DNA of 64,000 nucleotides. It comes from Candidatus Xenobia bacterium. Lineage in GTDB: Bacteria > Vulcanimicrobiota > Xenobia > Xenobiales > QWHO01. Made by a program: the position numbers and the translations under genes. The notes under the pieces were generated by a model. That model did no database searches, was not told the DNA's origin, and was given only the letters and a program-made list of their open reading frames with translations. Position 1 is the stretch's first letter, and every line of letters begins with the position of its first letter. Shown piece by piece: positions 3,040-9,883 of this stretch. The stretch is taken from positions 32,001 to 96,000 of the forward strand of contig BTUM01000020.1 of the NCBI GenBank assembly GCA_045863235.1, read 5' to 3'.

Positions 3040-3795
3040 TTATCCCTCATTTTCAAGCGGAGTTCGAGCAGAAGGGCCCGTTAGGAGCAGATTCGCGTTC
3101 TCAGCTCGCCCCCCTTCCCACACGCGCCAGGGAAGCCATAAGAGCAGGAAGTTGAAGGCAGAGAGAACCTCCAGGCTCAGTAGATAAAAGGGCCAGGGAC
3201 CGAGGTAGTCCATCAAGCTGCCGCCCGCAGGCTTGGAGCAGAGGTACCCGTAGTTCCAGCCGAAGGAAAAGTCCAGTGCCCCCACGATCAGGGCGTAGAG
3301 GTTGAGCGCGAGCAGGGCTCGCAGCACGCTCCCGGGGCGCGGGCGGAGCCGGTAGGCGGCCATCAGATAGAAGACGGCCGTGAAGATCAGCCCGTGTCCG
3401 ATGAAGAATTCCAGGTAGTACCAGCTGGGAAAGCCCACCCCCTGGGAGATGTCCGGCTGAAGGAGGGCCTGCAGTGCTCCCGCCAGCCCCCAGTAGTAGG
3501 CCAGCTCGAAACTTGTCTGGGAAGGGGAGAGCACTGCCCAGAGGCAGATCAACACCACCAGGTCGCACAGGTGCAAGGGCAATGCCTCGGTCACCGCCGC
3601 CAGGCCCGCGTCCTTCCAGCGCTGGTAGTAAGCGGTGAGGATATAGGCCAGGATAACAAGAGCGATCAGTCGGCCCGGCAGCAGGCGCTGGCGCTCGTCC
3701 AGCCGCCTGGCCCAGAGCAGGATGGCCACCGACAGGATCACGGTCAGAGCCAGGGGGATCAGGTGCTGGTCCGACCAGGCCTGAAACGGGATCAC
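3040..3795 (-). CDS. TIGR02206/YwaF family integral membrane protein
   Basis: LPLHLC, ALLQPD, FFIGH and NYGYLC.KP...SLMDYLGPWP motifs; GTG 3795 overlaps upstream stop. Confidence 0.85.
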   Translation of the reverse strand: MIPFQAWSDQHLIPLALTVILSVAILLWARRLDERQRLLPGRLIALVILAYILTAYYQRWKDAGLAAVTEALPLHLCDLVVLICLWAVLSPSQTSFELAYYWGLAGALQALLQPDISQGVGFPSWYYLEFFIGHGLIFTAVFYLMAAYRLRPRPGSVLRALLALNLYALIVGALDFSFGWNYGYLCSKPAGGSLMDYLGPWPFYLLSLEVLSAFNFLLLWLPWRVWEGGRAENANLLLTGPSARTPLENEG

Positions 3796-4424
3796 GGGCG
3801 ACGGCCGTAACGCTCGAACGAGACCACCTCGCGCACGGGTCGGCGGCGATTGGGGGTATACTCCTCCAGGGGCCAGCCTAGCGGAATGAGGCAACAAGGG
3901 GTGACCCGCCAGGGCAGCCCCACCGCCCGGCGGACCGCTCCGAGATTCCACAGCGGTATGGTGATCAGGGCCGCCCCCAGACCGGCGGCCCGGGCGCCGA
4001 GCAAAAGGTTCTGCACGGCCGGATAGATGGACCCGAAAGCGCTGGTGGCAGCCAGGAAGGGAAAAGGCCAGATGACTTGCTTGAGGCATGGGATGATCAG
4101 GGCGGGAATCTCTTCGAAGTGGTCTGCCTGCCACTGGGCCGATTCGAACATGCGCTGGCGGGTGGGTGTAAGCTTTGCCAGTGGCTTGAGCATGCGAAAC
4201 AGCGCGAATGCCTGTCGATTGAGGCGGGCCAGTCGGGCTATGGTCTCGCGCTCGCGCACGACCACGAACTCCCAGCCCTGGGCATTGGAGCCTGAGGGAG
4301 CTCGGATGGCCAGGTCCAGAAGGTGCAAGAGCAGCTCATCCTCGACCGGGTCTGTCTTGAGGCGGCGCAGGGCTCGCTGGGTACGCATGGCCTGCTCGAG
4401 GGGCATGTCCAGGTTGTAAGCCAT
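3792..4424 (-). CDS. nitroreductase family protein
   Basis: R.LRR, APSGSNAQGWEF, AVQNLLLGARAAGLG and IPLGWP motifs. Confidence 0.9.
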   Translation of the reverse strand: MAYNLDMPLEQAMRTQRALRRLKTDPVEDELLLHLLDLAIRAPSGSNAQGWEFVVVRERETIARLARLNRQAFALFRMLKPLAKLTPTRQRMFESAQWQADHFEEIPALIIPCLKQVIWPFPFLAATSAFGSIYPAVQNLLLGARAAGLGAALITIPLWNLGAVRRAVGLPWRVTPCCLIPLGWPLEEYTPNRRRPVREVVSFERYGRRP

Positions 4425-4539
4425 GGCTACAGGTTCTGGAGGGCCTGCCGGCAAGCCTTTCTCTCGAGGACTACGATCCGTCCCCCCGCCTCCGCCACAA
4501 GATGGCGCAGGGGTTCCGCTCCCAGGGTCTACCTCTCCG

Positions 4540-4680
4540 CCTGGCAGGCTGATGCAGAACCGGTTGTGGTGTCGAAGCAGAGCTCCCGCCACCACAAGAC
4601 ATTGTGTAGGGCATCAGCCTGCTACACATTCTGTTGAGCGCAGGATGATGCAAAAGCCACTTTTGCATCACTCTGCCAGG
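4540..4680. repeat. nested inverted-repeat intergenic element (MITE/REP-like or structured RNA)
   Basis: Terminal IR 4540-4559/4661-4680 (17/20); internal IRs 4544-4555/4611-4622, 4564-4571/4590-4597 and 4646-4656/4660-4670. Confidence 0.7.
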
Positions 4681-4746
4681 AGAAGGACCGCGGCGTTCGA
4701 GCAGAAGCACGATTTGAGGTTTTTTCATCGAGCACGAGTTCCGACC

Positions 4747-5856
4747 TCAGCTGCCCAGGCTGGAAAGCACGCCGTAGACCGGCAAGAACATGCCCACGAA
4801 CAAGATGGCGGTGACCACTCCGATGGCGCACACCACCACGGGCTCGAGAATGGTGACCAGCTGGGTGACCACCACTTCCACCTGCTGCTCGAGCAGCCGG
4901 GCCAGCGATTCCAGAAGAAGATCCAGGCTGCCGCTTTCCTCACCCACCTGGCAGAGATTGCTGACCATGGACGGAAAATACGGGATGGTCGAGACGGCCT
5001 GCGAGATGCTTCCCTCCAGCACCAGGCGATCGCGAGCCGCCTCGAGGTAGCGGCGGTGAAGCCGGTGGGGAGAGGTCCTGGCCAGCATGGTCAGGGACTG
5101 GTTCAGGGTTACCCCTTCGCGGTGCAGCGACGCGATGATGTCGCAGAATTGTTTGCAGAGCACCACGCCGATCCAGGGTCCGACCACCGGGGCATGCAGA
5201 GCCATTTCGAACACTCGCTCGGAAAGTTCGCGGCGAAAGTGCCACAGGACAGCCAGGGTGAGCAGGAAAAGGACGATGAAGGCCGGGTGGTTGACCGCCC
5301 CCACCAGACCGATGACGATCTTGGAGAGCAAGGGGAGCTCCAGGTTCATCTGGTGATAGAGACCCAGGAATCTGGGCATCACGAACTTGACGATGCAGAG
5401 CAGGATCAGGAAGCCTGCGGCTATCGTAATGGCCGGGCCGGTGAGGGCCTGACCGATGCGTGCCGAGAGGTTGGCCGAACGTTCCAGCAACTCGCCCGCC
5501 TTGCGCAGCCGTCCGGCCAGGTCGCCCCCCGTTTCGCCGGCCTTGACCAGCATGATGGCGGTGGGCGGAAAGACGTCCGGGAAGGTGGCCAGCGATGAGG
5601 AGAGCGACCAGCCGTGTTTACAGACCCGGTCCAGGATGACGTCCAGGGTTCTGACCAGACGAGGGTGGGACTGCTGAGCCTGGAGCACGTTGAGGGCAGC
5701 TCCCGGCGGGACCCCGTTCTCGAGCAGCAGGGCCAGTTGCTGGAGCAGGACGGCCACTGCTCGCACCGGGACAGGCCCGGCCAGGGTCAATTGGAGCTCT
5801 TCGAGGTCGAACCAGGAAGACCGGGGAGCCTTGTGACTGGCCGCAACCGCCTTCAA
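4747..5856 (-). CDS. type II secretion system F / PilC family inner-membrane platform protein
   Basis: Two T2SSF domains: QLALLLENGVP, AGETGGDL, VGEESGSL, LEP, MFLPVY. Confidence 0.9.
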   Translation of the reverse strand: MKAVAASHKAPRSSWFDLEELQLTLAGPVPVRAVAVLLQQLALLLENGVPPGAALNVLQAQQSHPRLVRTLDVILDRVCKHGWSLSSSLATFPDVFPPTAIMLVKAGETGGDLAGRLRKAGELLERSANLSARIGQALTGPAITIAAGFLILLCIVKFVMPRFLGLYHQMNLELPLLSKIVIGLVGAVNHPAFIVLFLLTLAVLWHFRRELSERVFEMALHAPVVGPWIGVVLCKQFCDIIASLHREGVTLNQSLTMLARTSPHRLHRRYLEAARDRLVLEGSISQAVSTIPYFPSMVSNLCQVGEESGSLDLLLESLARLLEQQVEVVVTQLVTILEPVVVCAIGVVTAILFVGMFLPVYGVLSSLGS

Positions 5857-6572
5857 GGCAATTGGCTGACCATGTAGTTCACCACCGCGTCAAGATCGGC
5901 GTCGGAGAGCGCAGTCGTGTTGAAGGTGGTCATGTAGCTCATGTTCTGCCCGGTGCTGGGATCGTTGTAGTAGTAGTTGCTGCTGCCGGTGTTCACAAAG
6001 GCGTTGGGGTTGCGCACCGAGTCCCGGATGTACTGGTCCAGGCTGACTCCGGCTGCGCTGGCGTTGGCTTGAAGCTGGGCCCTGGTCCAGGGGGGAGCCG
6101 CTCCGGTGGTGGACCCGACCTGCCCTCCTCCGCCGTAGGCCTGCATGGAGTGGCACGATAGACAGGTGAGGTTGTTCACGATCAAGCTGTAGCCCGGGGC
6201 GGGCGGGGGTGCGTTGGTCTTGATGGTCTTGAGCTCGCGAAACTGACCGGCGGGGTCGGAAACCCGGACCGTCACCACAATGGCGTCGGGCCCGAAGTCC
6301 GAGTCGAGAGAGTTGGCACTGGTCTCAGTCACCTGCCCGGTGAACGGGGTAGGGCAAGCAAACGGGCCCGTGGTGGTGAAGTAGGAGCCTTCAGCGATGA
6401 CCCTGTCCATCTGAGCCTGAGCCAGCATGTCCATTTTCTGGTTATGCTCGACATGCTGCGGCACGCGACTCCCCGTGATGAACATGCTCATCACGAAGCT
6501 GGCTGAGAGAAAGAGCAGGGCGATGGCCATCACCATCTCGAGCATGGTCAGTCCGCCGCGCCAGCGTCTCAT
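5853..6572 (-). CDS. prepilin (PilV-like minor pilin) fused to a C-terminal cytochrome c domain
   Basis: Class III signal RRWRGG|LTMLE plus hydrophobic helix; CLSCH at 6150-6164; YIRDSVRNPNAFV...M...LSDADLDAVVNY cytochrome c pattern. Confidence 0.8.
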   Translation of the reverse strand: MRRWRGGLTMLEMVMAIALLFLSASFVMSMFITGSRVPQHVEHNQKMDMLAQAQMDRVIAEGSYFTTTGPFACPTPFTGQVTETSANSLDSDFGPDAIVVTVRVSDPAGQFRELKTIKTNAPPPAPGYSLIVNNLTCLSCHSMQAYGGGGQVGSTTGAAPPWTRAQLQANASAAGVSLDQYIRDSVRNPNAFVNTGSSNYYYNDPSTGQNMSYMTTFNTTALSDADLDAVVNYMVSQLP

Positions 6573-7069
6573 TGCAGTAGCCTCCCCTCCATCTCGATGG
6601 GGGCGCTCAGGGTGGCCACCCAGACGCGGGCTCGGACCATGTTCGGCGTGCCCGACGGGACCACGTCAAAGCCCCGCACGTTGCGCACCATGACCTGTCC
6701 CCCGGAGGGGTCGCCCGGCCCCAGCCTGCGGATTTCGGCGGGCTGGTTGGGCCCCAGCGGTTGCAGCCAGTACTCCACCTGCACCAGGGTCTGGTTGGGG
6801 CCGTTGCGACGCAGCACCAGGTGCTGGGCGGGGCCAGGGTTCAGGGGCACCCCCGAGAGCAGCATGCCGGGTCGGGTGGTCTGCAGCTCGCGTTTGAGCT
6901 GCCCGAGCATGGTCAGCGCCTCGCGACGGGCCTGCACCTTGTCCACCGTCTTGCTCTGGGCCCGGTAGGCTACCACGACCGCCTGACAGACCATGCCCAT
7001 AATCAGCAAAAAGACGGAGGAGGACACCAGCAGCTCGATGATCGTGACGCCCCTACAGGCCTTCATCAT
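6569..7069 (-). CDS. PilW/PulJ-like minor pilin
   Basis: KACRG|VTIIE plus hydrophobic helix. Confidence 0.8.
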   Translation of the reverse strand: MMKACRGVTIIELLVSSSVFLLIMGMVCQAVVVAYRAQSKTVDKVQARREALTMLGQLKRELQTTRPGMLLSGVPLNPGPAQHLVLRRNGPNQTLVQVEYWLQPLGPNQPAEIRRLGPGDPSGGQVMVRNVRGFDVVPSGTPNMVRARVWVATLSAPIEMEGRLLQ

Positions 7070-7466
7070 ACATCTCCTGGCGGGCTCCGCCAGCGGTGGT
7101 GCCAGCCGGCAAGACGACCGTTCGCGAGGCCACCGTATTGCCCATGGCGTCCACCACCCGGCCGGTGCAGCGATAGAGGTTCAGGCTGCTGTCATAGGCG
7201 ATGTCCACCAGCTCGGTTCCGGTGGCATTCAAGCTGAGCGTCTGAGGGGCCGACTTGAAGAAGTCCGGGTTGTGGACGTCCTTCCAGCAGACGTAGTCAA
7301 CCCCCGCCTGGGCCAGGCAGGTGGCTCGCTCCATCTTTTCGGAGCGAAGCTGCATGTAGCTGTCGCGCTCGACAAAGTAGAGAAAGCCGAGGCCCACGGT
7401 GAACAAAAACATGGCCAGCAGCATGGAGAGCATGAGAGCCATTCCTCGTCGTAGCAGGCGGACCAT
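7053..7466 (-). CDS. PilX/GspK-like minor pilin
   Basis: RRG|MALML lacking E5, hydrophobic helix, A..LAQAGV motif; start could be 7475. Confidence 0.7.
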   Translation of the reverse strand: MVRLLRRGMALMLSMLLAMFLFTVGLGFLYFVERDSYMQLRSEKMERATCLAQAGVDYVCWKDVHNPDFFKSAPQTLSLNATGTELVDIAYDSSLNLYRCTGRVVDAMGNTVASRTVVLPAGTTAGGARQEMYDEGL

Positions 7467-7545
7467 TTGGTTCATTTGTACCACAAACCTGGCCGCAATG
7501 CCAGGTTGGGAGAATTTTTTGACGAATGACCGGAGGGTGAGGACG

Positions 7546-8127
7546 ATGCTGCTTGTCCTGGCCATGTTTGCCTGCCACTGCGGCTCGAGCCCTCCTGCCA
7601 AGCCAGCCGCTCCCCCCTCGGTTGCCGGCCAGCCGTCCGCCGCCCCGAGCTCCCCGACGCAAGGTGCAGCCGGCCCTCGGTTGAGTCACAACGCGCCTCC
7701 GGGCGCCGAACCTCAACCCGAGGCCCCTCAGTCGGTTCGTTTGCGCCGCCAGCACCCCGACGACCCCATTCCGGCGCAGCTCTCCGAGCTTCCTGGCTTT
7801 ACCGATGCGAGTCGGGTGGCCCGCTCGGTGGACTACGGTCCCGAATCGGTGGCCCGGGGTCGCAGGATGTATCAAAATGCCTGCGCTCCATGTCACCAGA
7901 TGACTGGCGAGGGAATGCCCGGTCGCAATTACGGGGTCAAGACTCTCCCGCGCGATCTGCGCGAGCCGGAATACTACCGCTATGGAAGCTCCGACCGCGC
8001 GCTCTACCGCACCATCGTCCACGGCATTCCAGGCTCTCCCATGGGCTCATTTGACGGGATGCCGCCTGAGATGGCCTGGGATCTGGTCCACTACGTCCGC
8101 TCCCTGTACAAACCGGAAATGCCCTGA
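7546..8127 (+). CDS. exported (lipoprotein-like) monoheme cytochrome c
   Basis: Short hydrophobic N-terminus with Cys, Pro/Ala linker, CAPCH at 7882-7896, GIPGSPMGSF distal Met, WDLVHYVRSL. Confidence 0.85.
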   Translation: MLLVLAMFACHCGSSPPAKPAAPPSVAGQPSAAPSSPTQGAAGPRLSHNAPPGAEPQPEAPQSVRLRRQHPDDPIPAQLSELPGFTDASRVARSVDYGPESVARGRRMYQNACAPCHQMTGEGMPGRNYGVKTLPRDLREPEYYRYGSSDRALYRTIVHGIPGSPMGSFDGMPPEMAWDLVHYVRSLYKPEMP

Positions 8128-8187
8128 AAGGTCTCCGCTCGGGTTCTCCCGAAAGAATCTAATACAATCATAAGCAAAGGAACCATT

Positions 8188-8955
8188 ATGGAACGAGGAA
8201 CAGCATTCCGTTCGGGCAACCCGGCCCTTTCCGAGAAGACTTTTGAGCAATGGCGCACGCTCAGCCTGCCCCAGAATGATGTGATGACCATTCAGGGCAC
8301 GGTCAACAAGACTGCCATCTTGCTCTTCATCGCGGTCGTTGCCGCCAGCTTTACCTGGAAGCTCTTCCTGGACAAGAACCCGGTGGTTCTACCCCTGATC
8401 ATCGTTGGCTTCGTGGGGGCGCTGATCGTCGGGCTCGTGACCATCTTCAAGAAGGAGTGGTCTCCCGTCACGGCGCCCCTCTATGCGGCCCTGGAGGGGT
8501 TGCTGTTGGGCGGCATCTCGGCCATGTACAACCAGGCCTATGAAGGCATCGTGGCTCAGGCCGTCGTGCTCACCTTCGGCACCCTGGGCGTGTTGCTGGT
8601 GGCCTACAAGTCCGGGCTCATCAAGGCCACTGAGAACTTCAAGCTGATGATCGTGGCGGCCACCGGGGGGATCTGTCTGCTCTACCTGGTGTCCATCTTG
8701 TTCAGCGCCTTCGGGATGCCCAACGCCATTCCGATGATTCACTCGAGCGGCACGTTCGGGATCATCTTCTCGCTGGTGGTGGTGGCCATCGCCGCGCTGA
8801 ACCTGGTGCTCGACTTCGACTTCATCGAGAGCGGCGCCGAGGCCGGCGCGCCCAAGTTCATGGAGTGGTACGGGGCTTACGGCCTGATGGTGACACTGGT
8901 GTGGCTCTACCTCGAGATTCTCCGGTTGCTCTCCAAGCTGCGCAGCCGCGACTGA
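8188..8955 (+). CDS. Bax inhibitor-1/YccA family membrane protein
   Basis: MTIQGTVNKT, YAALEG, LDFDFIE and LVWLYLEILRLL motifs. Confidence 0.92.
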   Translation: MERGTAFRSGNPALSEKTFEQWRTLSLPQNDVMTIQGTVNKTAILLFIAVVAASFTWKLFLDKNPVVLPLIIVGFVGALIVGLVTIFKKEWSPVTAPLYAALEGLLLGGISAMYNQAYEGIVAQAVVLTFGTLGVLLVAYKSGLIKATENFKLMIVAATGGICLLYLVSILFSAFGMPNAIPMIHSSGTFGIIFSLVVVAIAALNLVLDFDFIESGAEAGAPKFMEWYGAYGLMVTLVWLYLEILRLLSKLRSRD

Positions 8956-8974
8956 GCTCAGCCTCAAGACCAGG

Positions 8975-9007
8975 AAGTAAGCCCGGGGGCGGGCTTACTT
9001 TTTTTTT
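8975..9007 (+). terminator. Rho-independent terminator
   Basis: AAGTAAGCCCG-GGGG-CGGGCTTACTT followed by a T tract. Confidence 0.9.
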
Positions 9008-9133
9008 GTCGGGGTTGATGCGGGTGCTCAGACGCGCTCTGCTCGCTAAGGCTCGGCAGACTTGATCGAGCTGACTCCTCCTTAGCCTTTCGCGGAGGGT
9101 CTCTCTGCGCAGGGGGCGAACAGGCAGCGCCTG

Positions 9134-9883
9134 ATGAGCCGAATCACCGTACACCGCATTCCTGTTTTGCAAGACAACTACAGCTATCTGATCGAAGACA
9201 CGCAGGAGAAGACCTGCGTGGTGGTCGATCCGGCCGAGGCCGGCCCGGTCAACGCCGCCATCGAGGAACTCGGCCTCAGGCCGGTCATGCTGTGGAACAC
9301 TCACCACCACGCCGACCACATCGACGGCAATCCGGGCGTGCTCGACAAGGCGGGTTCGATTCCCGTTTATGGATCGGCCGGCGACCGGGGGCGGATCCCC
9401 CAGTTGACCCACTTTCTCCAGGCCGGGGACAGCCTCGAGTTCGGGGGCGATACGGTGCGCGTGCTGGAGGTTCCCGGCCACACCCGGAGCCACATCGCTT
9501 ACTACCTGCCCAGCGGGCACCTGTTCTCGGGCGATCTGCTCTTTGGCTACAGCTGCGGCAAGGTTTTCGAGGGCACCATGGAGGACATGTACCGCTCTGT
9601 GGCCCAGGTGGCCGAGTTGCCCGACGAGACGCTGATCTACTGCGGTCACGAGTACACCCTGAACAATCGGCGCTTTGCCGAGACGGTCGAGCCCGACAAT
9701 CCGGACCACAAGGCCCGTGCCGCCGCCGAGACGGCTCCGCCCACCATCCCCCTCAAGCTCGCTCAGGAGAAGAAGACCAACCCCTTCTTGCGCTGGCACG
9801 TGCCGGCCGTGCAGGCATTCACGGGGAAGACCGCGCCGGCCGAGGTGTTCGGCGAGCTACGTCGTCGCAAGGATAACTTCTAA
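9134..9883 (+). CDS. gloB: hydroxyacylglutathione hydrolase (glyoxalase II)
   Basis: DNYSY, THHHADH, PGHT, GDLLF..SCG, CGHEYT, EK.TNPFLR and LRRRKD motifs. Confidence 0.92.
   Translation: MSRITVHRIPVLQDNYSYLIEDTQEKTCVVVDPAEAGPVNAAIEELGLRPVMLWNTHHHADHIDGNPGVLDKAGSIPVYGSAGDRGRIPQLTHFLQAGDSLEFGGDTVRVLEVPGHTRSHIAYYLPSGHLFSGDLLFGYSCGKVFEGTMEDMYRSVAQVAELPDETLIYCGHEYTLNNRRFAETVEPDNPDHKARAAAETAPPTIPLKLAQEKKTNPFLRWHVPAVQAFTGKTAPAEVFGELRRRKDNF

Follow-up and report, generated by a model that had tools for sequence, protein, structure and literature searches.

In a 64,000-nucleotide stretch of DNA from Candidatus Xenobia bacterium (contig BTUM01000020.1, positions 32,001 to 96,000; hereafter the window), five genes at positions 4747-8127 form a compact unit in which a minor pilin of the PilV/GspI type is, with little room for doubt, fused to a class I cytochrome c domain. 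Its companions are two further prepilin genes, a PilC/GspF-like platform gene and a divergently oriented gene for a second monoheme cytochrome c with a lipoprotein-type signal (Table 1). This predicted heme-bearing modular pilin and its dedicated partner cytochrome form a real and conserved unit, which is apparently undescribed. A sequence-only reading of the window had reported the four minus-strand reading frames, the plus-strand cytochrome frame and their motifs and overlaps, all of which we located as first noted. The minus-strand genes are transcribed in the order PilX-like, PilW-like, PilV-like and PilC-like, with 4-nt overlaps (ATGA and TTGA) at the PilW/PilV and PilV/PilC junctions. 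The start codon of the PilX-like gene is backed by a related genome, G002, in which the same Met directly follows a stop codon; here and below, G, L and C labels denote the genomes, loci and contigs compared, G000 being the genome of the window. The partner cytochrome starts at GTG 7537 or ATG 7546, 82-91 bp from the pilX start, in agreement with the roughly 80 bp given before.

The PilV-like protein begins with a basic leader (MRRWRGG) and a hydrophobic helix with Glu5, as expected of a type 4 pilin signal, and continues with a pilin part (residues 8-122), a Pro-rich linker and the cytochrome domain (residues 123-239), an arrangement that corresponds to modular pilins, in which a short linker joins the pilin module to a functional domain unrelated to pili. 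Pfam Cytochrom_C matches residues 134-236 with 32.4 bits against a cut-off of 21.3. The AlphaFold2 model, calculated from a 40-row alignment (pLDDT 82.8), predicts a long N-terminal helix (residues 10-61) and a beta-sheet head with strands to residue 119. VIA-align superimposed residues 37-122 on EpsI (2ret; Z 9.2, rmsd 2.3, 81 aa) and GspI (3ci0; Z 8.4), and residues 123-239 on the anammox protein Kustd1711 (7zs0; Z 9.8, rmsd 2.4, 96 aa) and the cytochrome c domain of caa3 oxidase (1w2l; Z 8.7). These Z values are middling, yet consistent with the sequence evidence, in which profile matches of the pilin cytochrome reached the same two proteins with E 6e-15 for Kustd1711 and 4e-11 for the caa3 domain (1W2L). 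Foldseek returned nothing at E<=0.001 for the two-domain model, whose domains were separated by VIA-align. With a single CxxCH near the domain start, a distal Met and a helical fold, the domain has the features of a class I cytochrome c, and the earlier description of a complete-looking monoheme cytochrome on a PilV-like protein holds.

Both halves of the protein are conserved. A homolog search of 1.84 billion representatives yielded 54 hits at E<=0.001, while word-index searches were insensitive (2 and 7 hits). Alignment A2 comprises 40 rows (the query, P0001 and 38 hits, two cytochrome-side fragments among them) and leaves out non-cytochrome paralogs that carry a propeller on the pilin part, cytochrome-only outgroups and unrelated rows. 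Cys137, Cys140 and His141 of the CxxCH motif are invariant in A2 (40/40), and the candidate distal Met proposed in the sequence-only reading, Met214, is retained in 37 of the 40 rows. In the profile alignment its column coincides with Met116 of Kustd1711, which serves that protein as distal ligand of a His/Met heme (PMC11791136). On the pilin side, Glu5 is present in 36/36 rows covering the position, and position -1 is Gly in 29 and Ala in 2 of the 31 rows that reach it. At all 19 loci with the full fusion, described below, the PilV-like subunit has one CxxCH and no Cys after it; one homolog, P0038, carries an extra CxxCH, inserted in the loop that follows the regular motif. The conserved loop around Pro189, close to the Met column, falls on the loop of Kustd1711 that binds calcium through its backbone (residues 104-107); a calcium site at this place is a lead at most. 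The fusion is under purifying selection, with dN/dS near 0.06: comparison of G000 with G002 gave values of 0.072 for the pilin half, 0.056 for the cytochrome half and, for the partner domain, 0.034.

An assembly join or frameshift as the source of the fusion can be ruled out, given this selection, the homologs at 19 loci and independent contigs of two other sequencing runs that cross without gaps from the pilin part into the cytochrome, CxxCH codons included (run X3 at 5905-6333, X7 at 5998-6346); the comparison with these runs' contigs lists no indels within 4747-8127. Where sequence could decide, the refuting outcomes named in the sequence-only reading did not occur: CxxCH and Met are conserved, the fusion does not stem from a frameshift or join, and genes for maturation and pilus assembly are in the genome. 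Three RNA-labelled runs contain pieces of the unit as contigs: X3 covers 27 of 30 bins and X7 20 of 30, both possibly DNA, and X9 covers 15 of 30, with one contig at 6564-7459.

The Pfam N_methyl cut-off of 21.2 bits is missed by all three prepilins (19.6 bits for the PilW-like protein, no listed hit for the PilV-like and PilX-like ones), so that their pilin identity rests on motif and gene context, and for the PilV-like protein also on its fold. The HMM scan suggested with the sequence-only reading thus recovered both cytochromes with Cytochrom_C and none of the prepilins with N_methyl; the assignment of the latter as PilX-, PilW- and PilV-like nevertheless stands on their prepilin motifs and on the GspI/EpsI fold of the PilV-like head. 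Judged as I, J and K subunits, the PilV-like protein has the I-type fold, the PilX-like one lacks Glu5, and family models match the PilW- and PilX-like proteins below cut-off. GspF, HofC and PilC family models likewise match the PilC-like protein below their cut-offs.

The class of the window (Ca. Eremiobacterota) is represented by 44 genomes, 17 of which have full fusions, at 19 loci in total; 15 of these loci are included in the search profile. By family, the fusions occur in 2/5 genomes of the window's own, 13/16 of f2, 2/3 of f4, 0/1 of f5 and 0/19 of f3. All 19 genomes of f3 lack heme-copper oxidase subunit I, which was found in 24 of the 25 others of the class; since the fusion is missing from every one of these oxidase-lacking genomes, the unit goes with lineages that respire. 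In the rest of the phylum (401 genomes), the matches listed, which leave aside 89 weaker ones, include no full-length fusion, other phyla being reached only via unnamed protein sets. Among the members of 90% clusters of the orthologs, one bears the label Candidatus Eremiobacteraeota and one, in a different cluster, Pseudomonadota; we take the latter for a depositor's label that conflicts with genome kinship. Near-identical DNA was detected in runs from sludge, digesters, wastewater, bioreactors and soil, and one locus, L021, encodes a PilV-like protein 93% identical to that of the window. Three genomes of the window's own genus (G001, G003 and G004, 90, 64 and 97% complete) show neither the fusion nor a full-length partner match, a joint absence that speaks for the link between the two.

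The conserved synteny that the sequence-only reading had proposed to look for was recovered as well. A PilW-like gene lies within the fetched stretch at 18 of the 19 loci and 13 kb off at the remaining one, an X-like homolog was found at 18 (L023 and L054 included), a PilC-like gene at 16 and a linked partner cytochrome also at 16. These genes stay together with the PilV-like gene through many reshuffled gene orders, and in 15 of the 16 loci that have both, the partner stands head-to-head with pilX, which supports a functional link between the putative membrane-anchored cytochrome and the pilin cassette. One copy, in G031, is split, with the PilV- and PilC-like genes 13 kb from those for the PilW-like, PilX-like and partner proteins. 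Two of the three loci without a linked partner sit on contigs of 2.3 and 9 kb, and their genomes carry partner-like genes on other contigs. Among the genes that the unit retains across the 19 loci, there is no FimU/GspH-like, major pilin, ATPase, secretin or PilY1 gene. In 11 loci measured, the distance from the lipobox to the pilX motif is 107-161 nt; no 8-mer is shared by more than two of these 11 spacers, which contain no FNR-, CRP- or sigma-54-like site (judged by consensus patterns). No sigma-70 site was found either.

The partner is a monoheme cytochrome c with a lipoprotein-type signal and a Pro/Ser-rich tether of ~60 aa, and belongs to a wider family of lipoprotein cytochromes. The tether of such partners is long and disordered (17-98 aa in the 13 measured), and they typically have a signal peptide II with lipobox Cys: the Cys column is kept in 14 of 15 partners, mostly as L-x-G-C. 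The lipobox of the window's partner, MFAC, is non-canonical, and the copy in G025 has none. The partner model (pLDDT 85.4) has its closest fold in Kustc0458 (6h5l, Z 13.4). The distal ligand is Met in 12 of 15 partners and His in the other three (L031:6262-6855, L037:6355-7080 and L038:9903-10598, from G009, G033 and G011, respectively), implying a lower potential for this branch as far as the ligand change can tell; the pilin cytochromes of the same three genomes have strongly negative charges (-12 to -19). At L049:5855-7015 and L050:5359-6576, away from any pilin cassette, paralogs of the partner stand in tandem pairs; these too are monoheme cytochromes of the lipoprotein type, and acidic.

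Charge sets the linked partners apart from the rest of their family. The net charge of the linked domains ranges from 0 to +11 (median +4; 16/16 not negative), that of the unlinked paralogs from -4 to -16 (11/11 negative), and two unplaced candidates have +5 and +7, all of these counts being inflated by kinship among loci. The pilin cytochrome domains are negative in 18 of 19 cases, and the opposite charges suggest a resemblance to an electron-transfer pair. A complex prediction with pilin residues 28-237, the partner domain and two hemes scored 0.59, 0.22 and 0.23 (median 0.23, mark 0.32) with controls that failed to fold, and we use these scores neither for nor against binding. A direct copy of ActE donating to caa3 oxidase was considered for the pair and rejected, as the partner matches ActE only moderately (6f0k_E, E 1.7e-6; 8k9e_E, Z 10.0, below the 13.4 of Kustc0458); we retain it as an analogy.

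The genome encodes the machinery that such a pilin would need, including the core of a type IVa pilus, as the sequence-only reading had proposed to check. Genes for heme c maturation (ResB and CcsA-type) are on contig C89, pilA-pilD-pilM-N-O-(P)-Q form one locus on C145, with pilP probable, a second secretin belongs to a type II secretion-like locus on C26, and the T2SSE ATPase family has 23 matches. With loose local profiles, we counted 41 PilC-like genes and 68 clusters with a total of 125 V/W/X-like genes; the window's gene is the single PilV-like one with a CxxCH. This expansion of filament parts is set against one PilD and two clear secretins, and many of the X-like pilins are 450-950 aa long. 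The closest sister cassette, on C45, shares the layout of small PilX, PilW and PilC, its PilC being 44% identical to that of the unit. Scans of multi-CxxCH reading frames (11 of 12) brought up peroxidases, cytochrome c3/c7/c554-like and TPR-linked proteins. The genome gave no match to LolA, none to an MtrB/PioB-type porin (with a weak control) and nothing for PilY1 in a genome-wide search without positive control.

Within the genome, the nearest relatives of the pilin cytochrome are a CoxIV-cytochrome fusion and a monoheme protein of a caa3-type oxidase operon, which suggests that the domain was grafted from respiratory stock; its closest relatives in the atlas are CoxII- and CoxIV-linked cytochromes, and a feature search there gave no usable hit. 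The cytochrome tree is poorly supported (3 changes; one clade not rejected, p-AU 0.33), so neither a single origin nor the donor of the graft is established.

Prepilins reside in the inner membrane with their heads outside, and a cytochrome domain in this position meets the maturation system like that of any membrane-anchored cytochrome. The PilV-like subunit would thus enter the inner membrane via its N-terminal helix, its C-terminal domain facing the periplasm as a consequence; the ResB/CcsA system would attach a His/Met heme c, after which PilD would cleave the leader. The PilX-, PilV- and PilW-like subunits, in the K, I and J positions, could then assemble on the unit's own PilC platform, with the major pilin, peptidase, motor and secretin borrowed from genes elsewhere in the genome. 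IJK-type pilins form the tip and start assembly, with the Glu5-less subunit as cap (PMC10191384), and one machine can serve several priming sets (PMC13759059; PMC8833165). From such family knowledge we infer prepilin processing, heme attachment and tip position, and consider it probable that the three pilins are assembled into a filament. The tethered lipoprotein cytochrome might swap an electron with the pilin heme as long as the complex is at the membrane, either ahead of extension or once the filament has retracted. A tip with one heme would pass only a tiny flux, and its likely job is therefore information: it could report on the redox state of surfaces, cells or oxidants that it touches, or gate filament assembly by the state of the respiratory chain.

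For this account as a whole, namely a specialized heme-bearing priming or tip complex with the lipoprotein as electron-exchange partner and a role in sensing or gating, we would claim slightly less than even odds. The analysis itself establishes domain anatomy, conservation, linkage, charge pattern and the presence of the machinery; that the cytochromes exchange electrons and that the complex senses or gates we infer, the latter being plausible but unproven. Several observations count against it. With 6 genera of 3 families behind the 19 loci, the counts are not independent. G005, an assembly of 590 contigs, has the fusion, yet the search for a partner there brought up just an acidic paralog without linkage. 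No signalling protein is among the genes kept in the unit at the 19 loci, which leaves the read-out unexplained. The charge contrast is weak in the window's own genome (partner 0, pilin domain -3), the charges of pilin and partner do not correlate significantly across loci (Spearman -0.37, p 0.18), and non-pilin relatives of the pilin's cytochrome are acidic as well, so that only the partner's charge shift is informative; its basic surface could instead bind lipids or another protein. The replacement of the distal Met by His in three of 15 partners means that the potential of the partner is not fixed, and the pilin cytochrome, with its long branches and variable loops, resembles an exposed tip domain more than a fixed redox interface.

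Filaments as respiratory wires or electron buckets, exchanging electrons with minerals or other cells, are the reading to which we give least credence, despite two canonical c-type hemes tied to a filament machine and the near-identical DNA from sludge, digesters and bioreactors. A single heme per tip cannot chain; one electron per extension cycle would, by our estimate, fall short of respiratory flux by orders of magnitude; known nanowires consist of polymerized multiheme cytochromes, the pilus of Geobacter being a poor conductor (PMC12954529). The cassette includes no multiheme protein, the genome gave no MtrB/PioB match, the control being weak, and the unit tracks lineages with heme-copper oxidases. 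The sequence-only reading is thus supported as to the pilin-cytochrome fusion in a priming- or tip-type cassette and the linked lipoprotein cytochrome, but the extracellular electron transfer that it also put forward is not supported as a form of respiration: a tip with one heme cannot be a wire and is unlikely to sustain bulk respiration, so that sensing or redox gating is left. We are hardly more inclined to a type II-like endopilus that pushes the lipoprotein cytochrome to the surface, with the pilin's cytochrome domain recognizing it as cargo. Lipoprotein cytochromes of Shewanella are reportedly exported by type II secretion. The long disordered tether would suit such a passage, complementary charge suits any direct contact, and the HIJK complex of type II secretion binds effectors (PMC10191384). 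Yet a conserved Met ligand would be superfluous for recognition alone, and lipoproteins are not clearly enriched near other cassettes (11 of 68, where random expectation averages 7.0 with a maximum of 15, in a crude test that overlooked the window's own partner).

Pilins that remain in the envelope, as a PilC-anchored membrane scaffold or a short periplasmic endopilus that positions the cytochrome for periplasmic electron transfer, would account for a cassette without its own FimU/GspH-like gene, major pilin, ATPase or secretin in a genome with a type II secretion-like locus; a membrane-tethered partner, which with no LolA match in the genome probably stays on the inner membrane, would reach periplasmic hemes only. 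We regard this as improbable, since dozens of cassettes have the same stand-alone layout, several with large C-terminal domains, which points to a shared machine, and Glu5, needed for filament packing, is kept throughout (36/36). Also unlikely, if somewhat better founded, is a use of the heme without redox function, in which it would stabilize a compact adhesin, cap or calcium-dependent tip element and the lipoprotein would help in folding or assembly. TfcP, a cytochrome c from a minor pilin cluster of Myxococcus xanthus, carries no electrons and promotes calcium binding by PilY1 (PMC8833165), and calcium could be of relevance here through the Pro189 loop. The sister cassette on C45 has a beta-propeller in place of the cytochrome, so that this position takes interchangeable cargo. 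But TfcP, in its non-redox role, has a His/Cys-ligated heme with a potential of about -310 mV, whereas both hemes here keep canonical ligands, and the joint retention of two cytochrome families of opposite charge is more easily explained by electron exchange. A further elaboration of the sensing account, which we offer as a doubtful one, would make the tip heme a mechanical single-electron probe of surfaces or prey, charged and read by the lipoprotein over cycles of extension and retraction, possibly tuned by calcium, and one of dozens of exchangeable tips in this lineage.

Searches of the full-text literature yielded no description of a pilin-cytochrome fusion, their coverage ending at closed-access papers and bioRxiv supplements, in line with the statement in the sequence-only reading that no described example was known. 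Modular pilins and TfcP come closest to it. Modular type IV pilins such as Streptococcus sanguinis PilB and PilC (PMC8179133) are alike in their pilin module, short linker and grafted domain, predicted at the tip, but their graft is an adhesin, whereas here it is a predicted covalent heme c redox domain. Dataset S1 of that survey (264 architectures, 1,219 proteins) and its other supplements contain neither the term cytochrome nor PF00034, PF13442 or any of three InterPro cytochrome accessions, although the survey required the N_methyl signature, which the present pilin family mostly misses. TfcP (PMC8833165) is likewise a monoheme cytochrome c encoded and conserved with PilX/W/V-type pilins, in the minor pilin/PilY1 cluster 1, but it is a separate soluble periplasmic protein with His/Cys ligation, outside the machine. 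In the present unit one cytochrome belongs to the pilin itself and the other is a lipoprotein, canonical ligands occur in both, and PilY1 is absent; no Cys follows the CxxCH, and the partners have Met or His ligands and a lipobox in place of the type I signal peptide of TfcP. The PilVWX and GspIJK priming complexes also consist of three prepilins, one without Glu5, and are comparable in the GspI/EpsI fold of the PilV-like head and the PilC/GspF link; the unit differs from them in having no FimU/GspH or PilY1, in carrying its cargo on the I-position subunit and in a minimal K-position protein of 133 aa.

The caa3 cytochrome c domain (1W2L) and Kustd1711 belong to the same subfamily as the pilin domain by profile and fold and share the position of the distal Met, but they serve respiration or nitrite oxidation, not filaments; the calcium site and the +350 mV potential are features of Kustd1711 that the pilin domain need not share. 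Cytochrome nanowires such as OmcS and OmcZ also place hemes in surface filaments, but as multiheme polymers without pilin folds, whereas the PilV-like subunit here has one CxxCH at all 19 loci. A 'pilin-cytochrome' cluster of Carboxydothermus (PMC7829351) combines hemes with pilus genes, but in separate multiheme genes, and the available part of that paper makes no mention of a fusion. For marine members of the phylum, a predatory life has been suggested, the accessible text not mentioning such a pilin (PMC9259500), and two further papers, as far as available, add nothing on this question (PMC11484240, PMC3543383). While the debate on pili versus cytochromes settled on two separate kinds of filament, the unit joins both folds in one polypeptide that is retained across the class together with a second cytochrome, and would extend modular pilins from adhesion to cofactor chemistry. 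It offers a small, expressible two-protein system for asking whether a pilus tip carries or senses redox state, and possibly a natural template for heme display on pili, and it draws attention to how unusually tip cassettes and platform proteins have multiplied in these bacteria.

Table 1. Features of the unit in the window, and cassettes of a second type elsewhere in the genome G000 (given as contig:positions).
Feature	Position	Strand	Basis or remarks
PilV/GspI-like modular minor pilin	5853..6572	-	239 aa, G|LTMLE; PF00034 above cut-off and model
CLSCH heme c attachment motif (Cys137, Cys140, His141)	6150..6164	-	sequence
Met214, predicted distal heme ligand, in YMTTF	5931..5933	-	alignment to Kustd1711
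PilW/GspJ-like minor pilin	6569..7069	-	166 aa, G|VTIIE; N_methyl below cut-off
PilX/GspK-like minor pilin	7053..7454	-	133 aa, G|MALML; Glu5 absent; large cap domain absent
PilC/GspF-like inner-membrane platform	4747..5856	-	369 aa; Pfam T2SSF PF00482 154 bits, two repeats
Partner monoheme cytochrome c, lipoprotein-type signal	7537..8127	+	CAPCH, distal Met in SPMG; PF00034 (Cytochrom_C) 43.7 bits
Intergenic spacer, presumed shared promoter region	7455..7536	.	pilX and cytochrome genes divergent
Second cassette type	C16:17156-21165
Second cassette type	C18:44472-48277
Second cassette type	C21:22978-26908
Second cassette type	C43:22417-24277
Second cassette type	C76:14264-18034
Second cassette type	C83:19837-23577

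Among the other cassettes of the genome, the sister on C45 is arranged as PilC-X-W-V, its PilV-like pilin carrying an NHL/SGL-like beta-propeller (L048:2654-4084, corresponding to G000:C45:28153-29583), and similar PilV-like proteins of 400-630 aa match across the class, the oxidase-free family included. The cassettes of the second type encode PilV-like pilins of ~260 aa and mostly small X proteins, with a prepilin of 650-700 aa adjoining in 5 of 6. A PilB-like ATPase at L067 (G000:C1:230432-232519) combines MshEN, a double zinc ribbon and a C-terminal receiver-like domain and is, by this composition, a candidate for a regulated motor.

The flanks of the unit (3040-4424 and 8188-9883) contain TMEM164-like, nitroreductase, Bax-inhibitor-like and glyoxalase II genes, none of which recurs as a conserved neighbour at three or more of the 19 loci. 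Downstream of pilC, at 4540-4660, lies a dispersed, partly palindromic repeat, for which blastn gave 34 hits genome-wide and at which each of the four runs shows a depth spike and loose ends; Rfam gave no match in 4300-8400, the repeat included. A double zinc-ribbon gene (Zn_ribbon_TFIIB) is located at 2297-2656 on the minus strand; it has a homolog near the unit at 6 of the 19 loci, which directly adjoins the unit in four genomes of genus g2.

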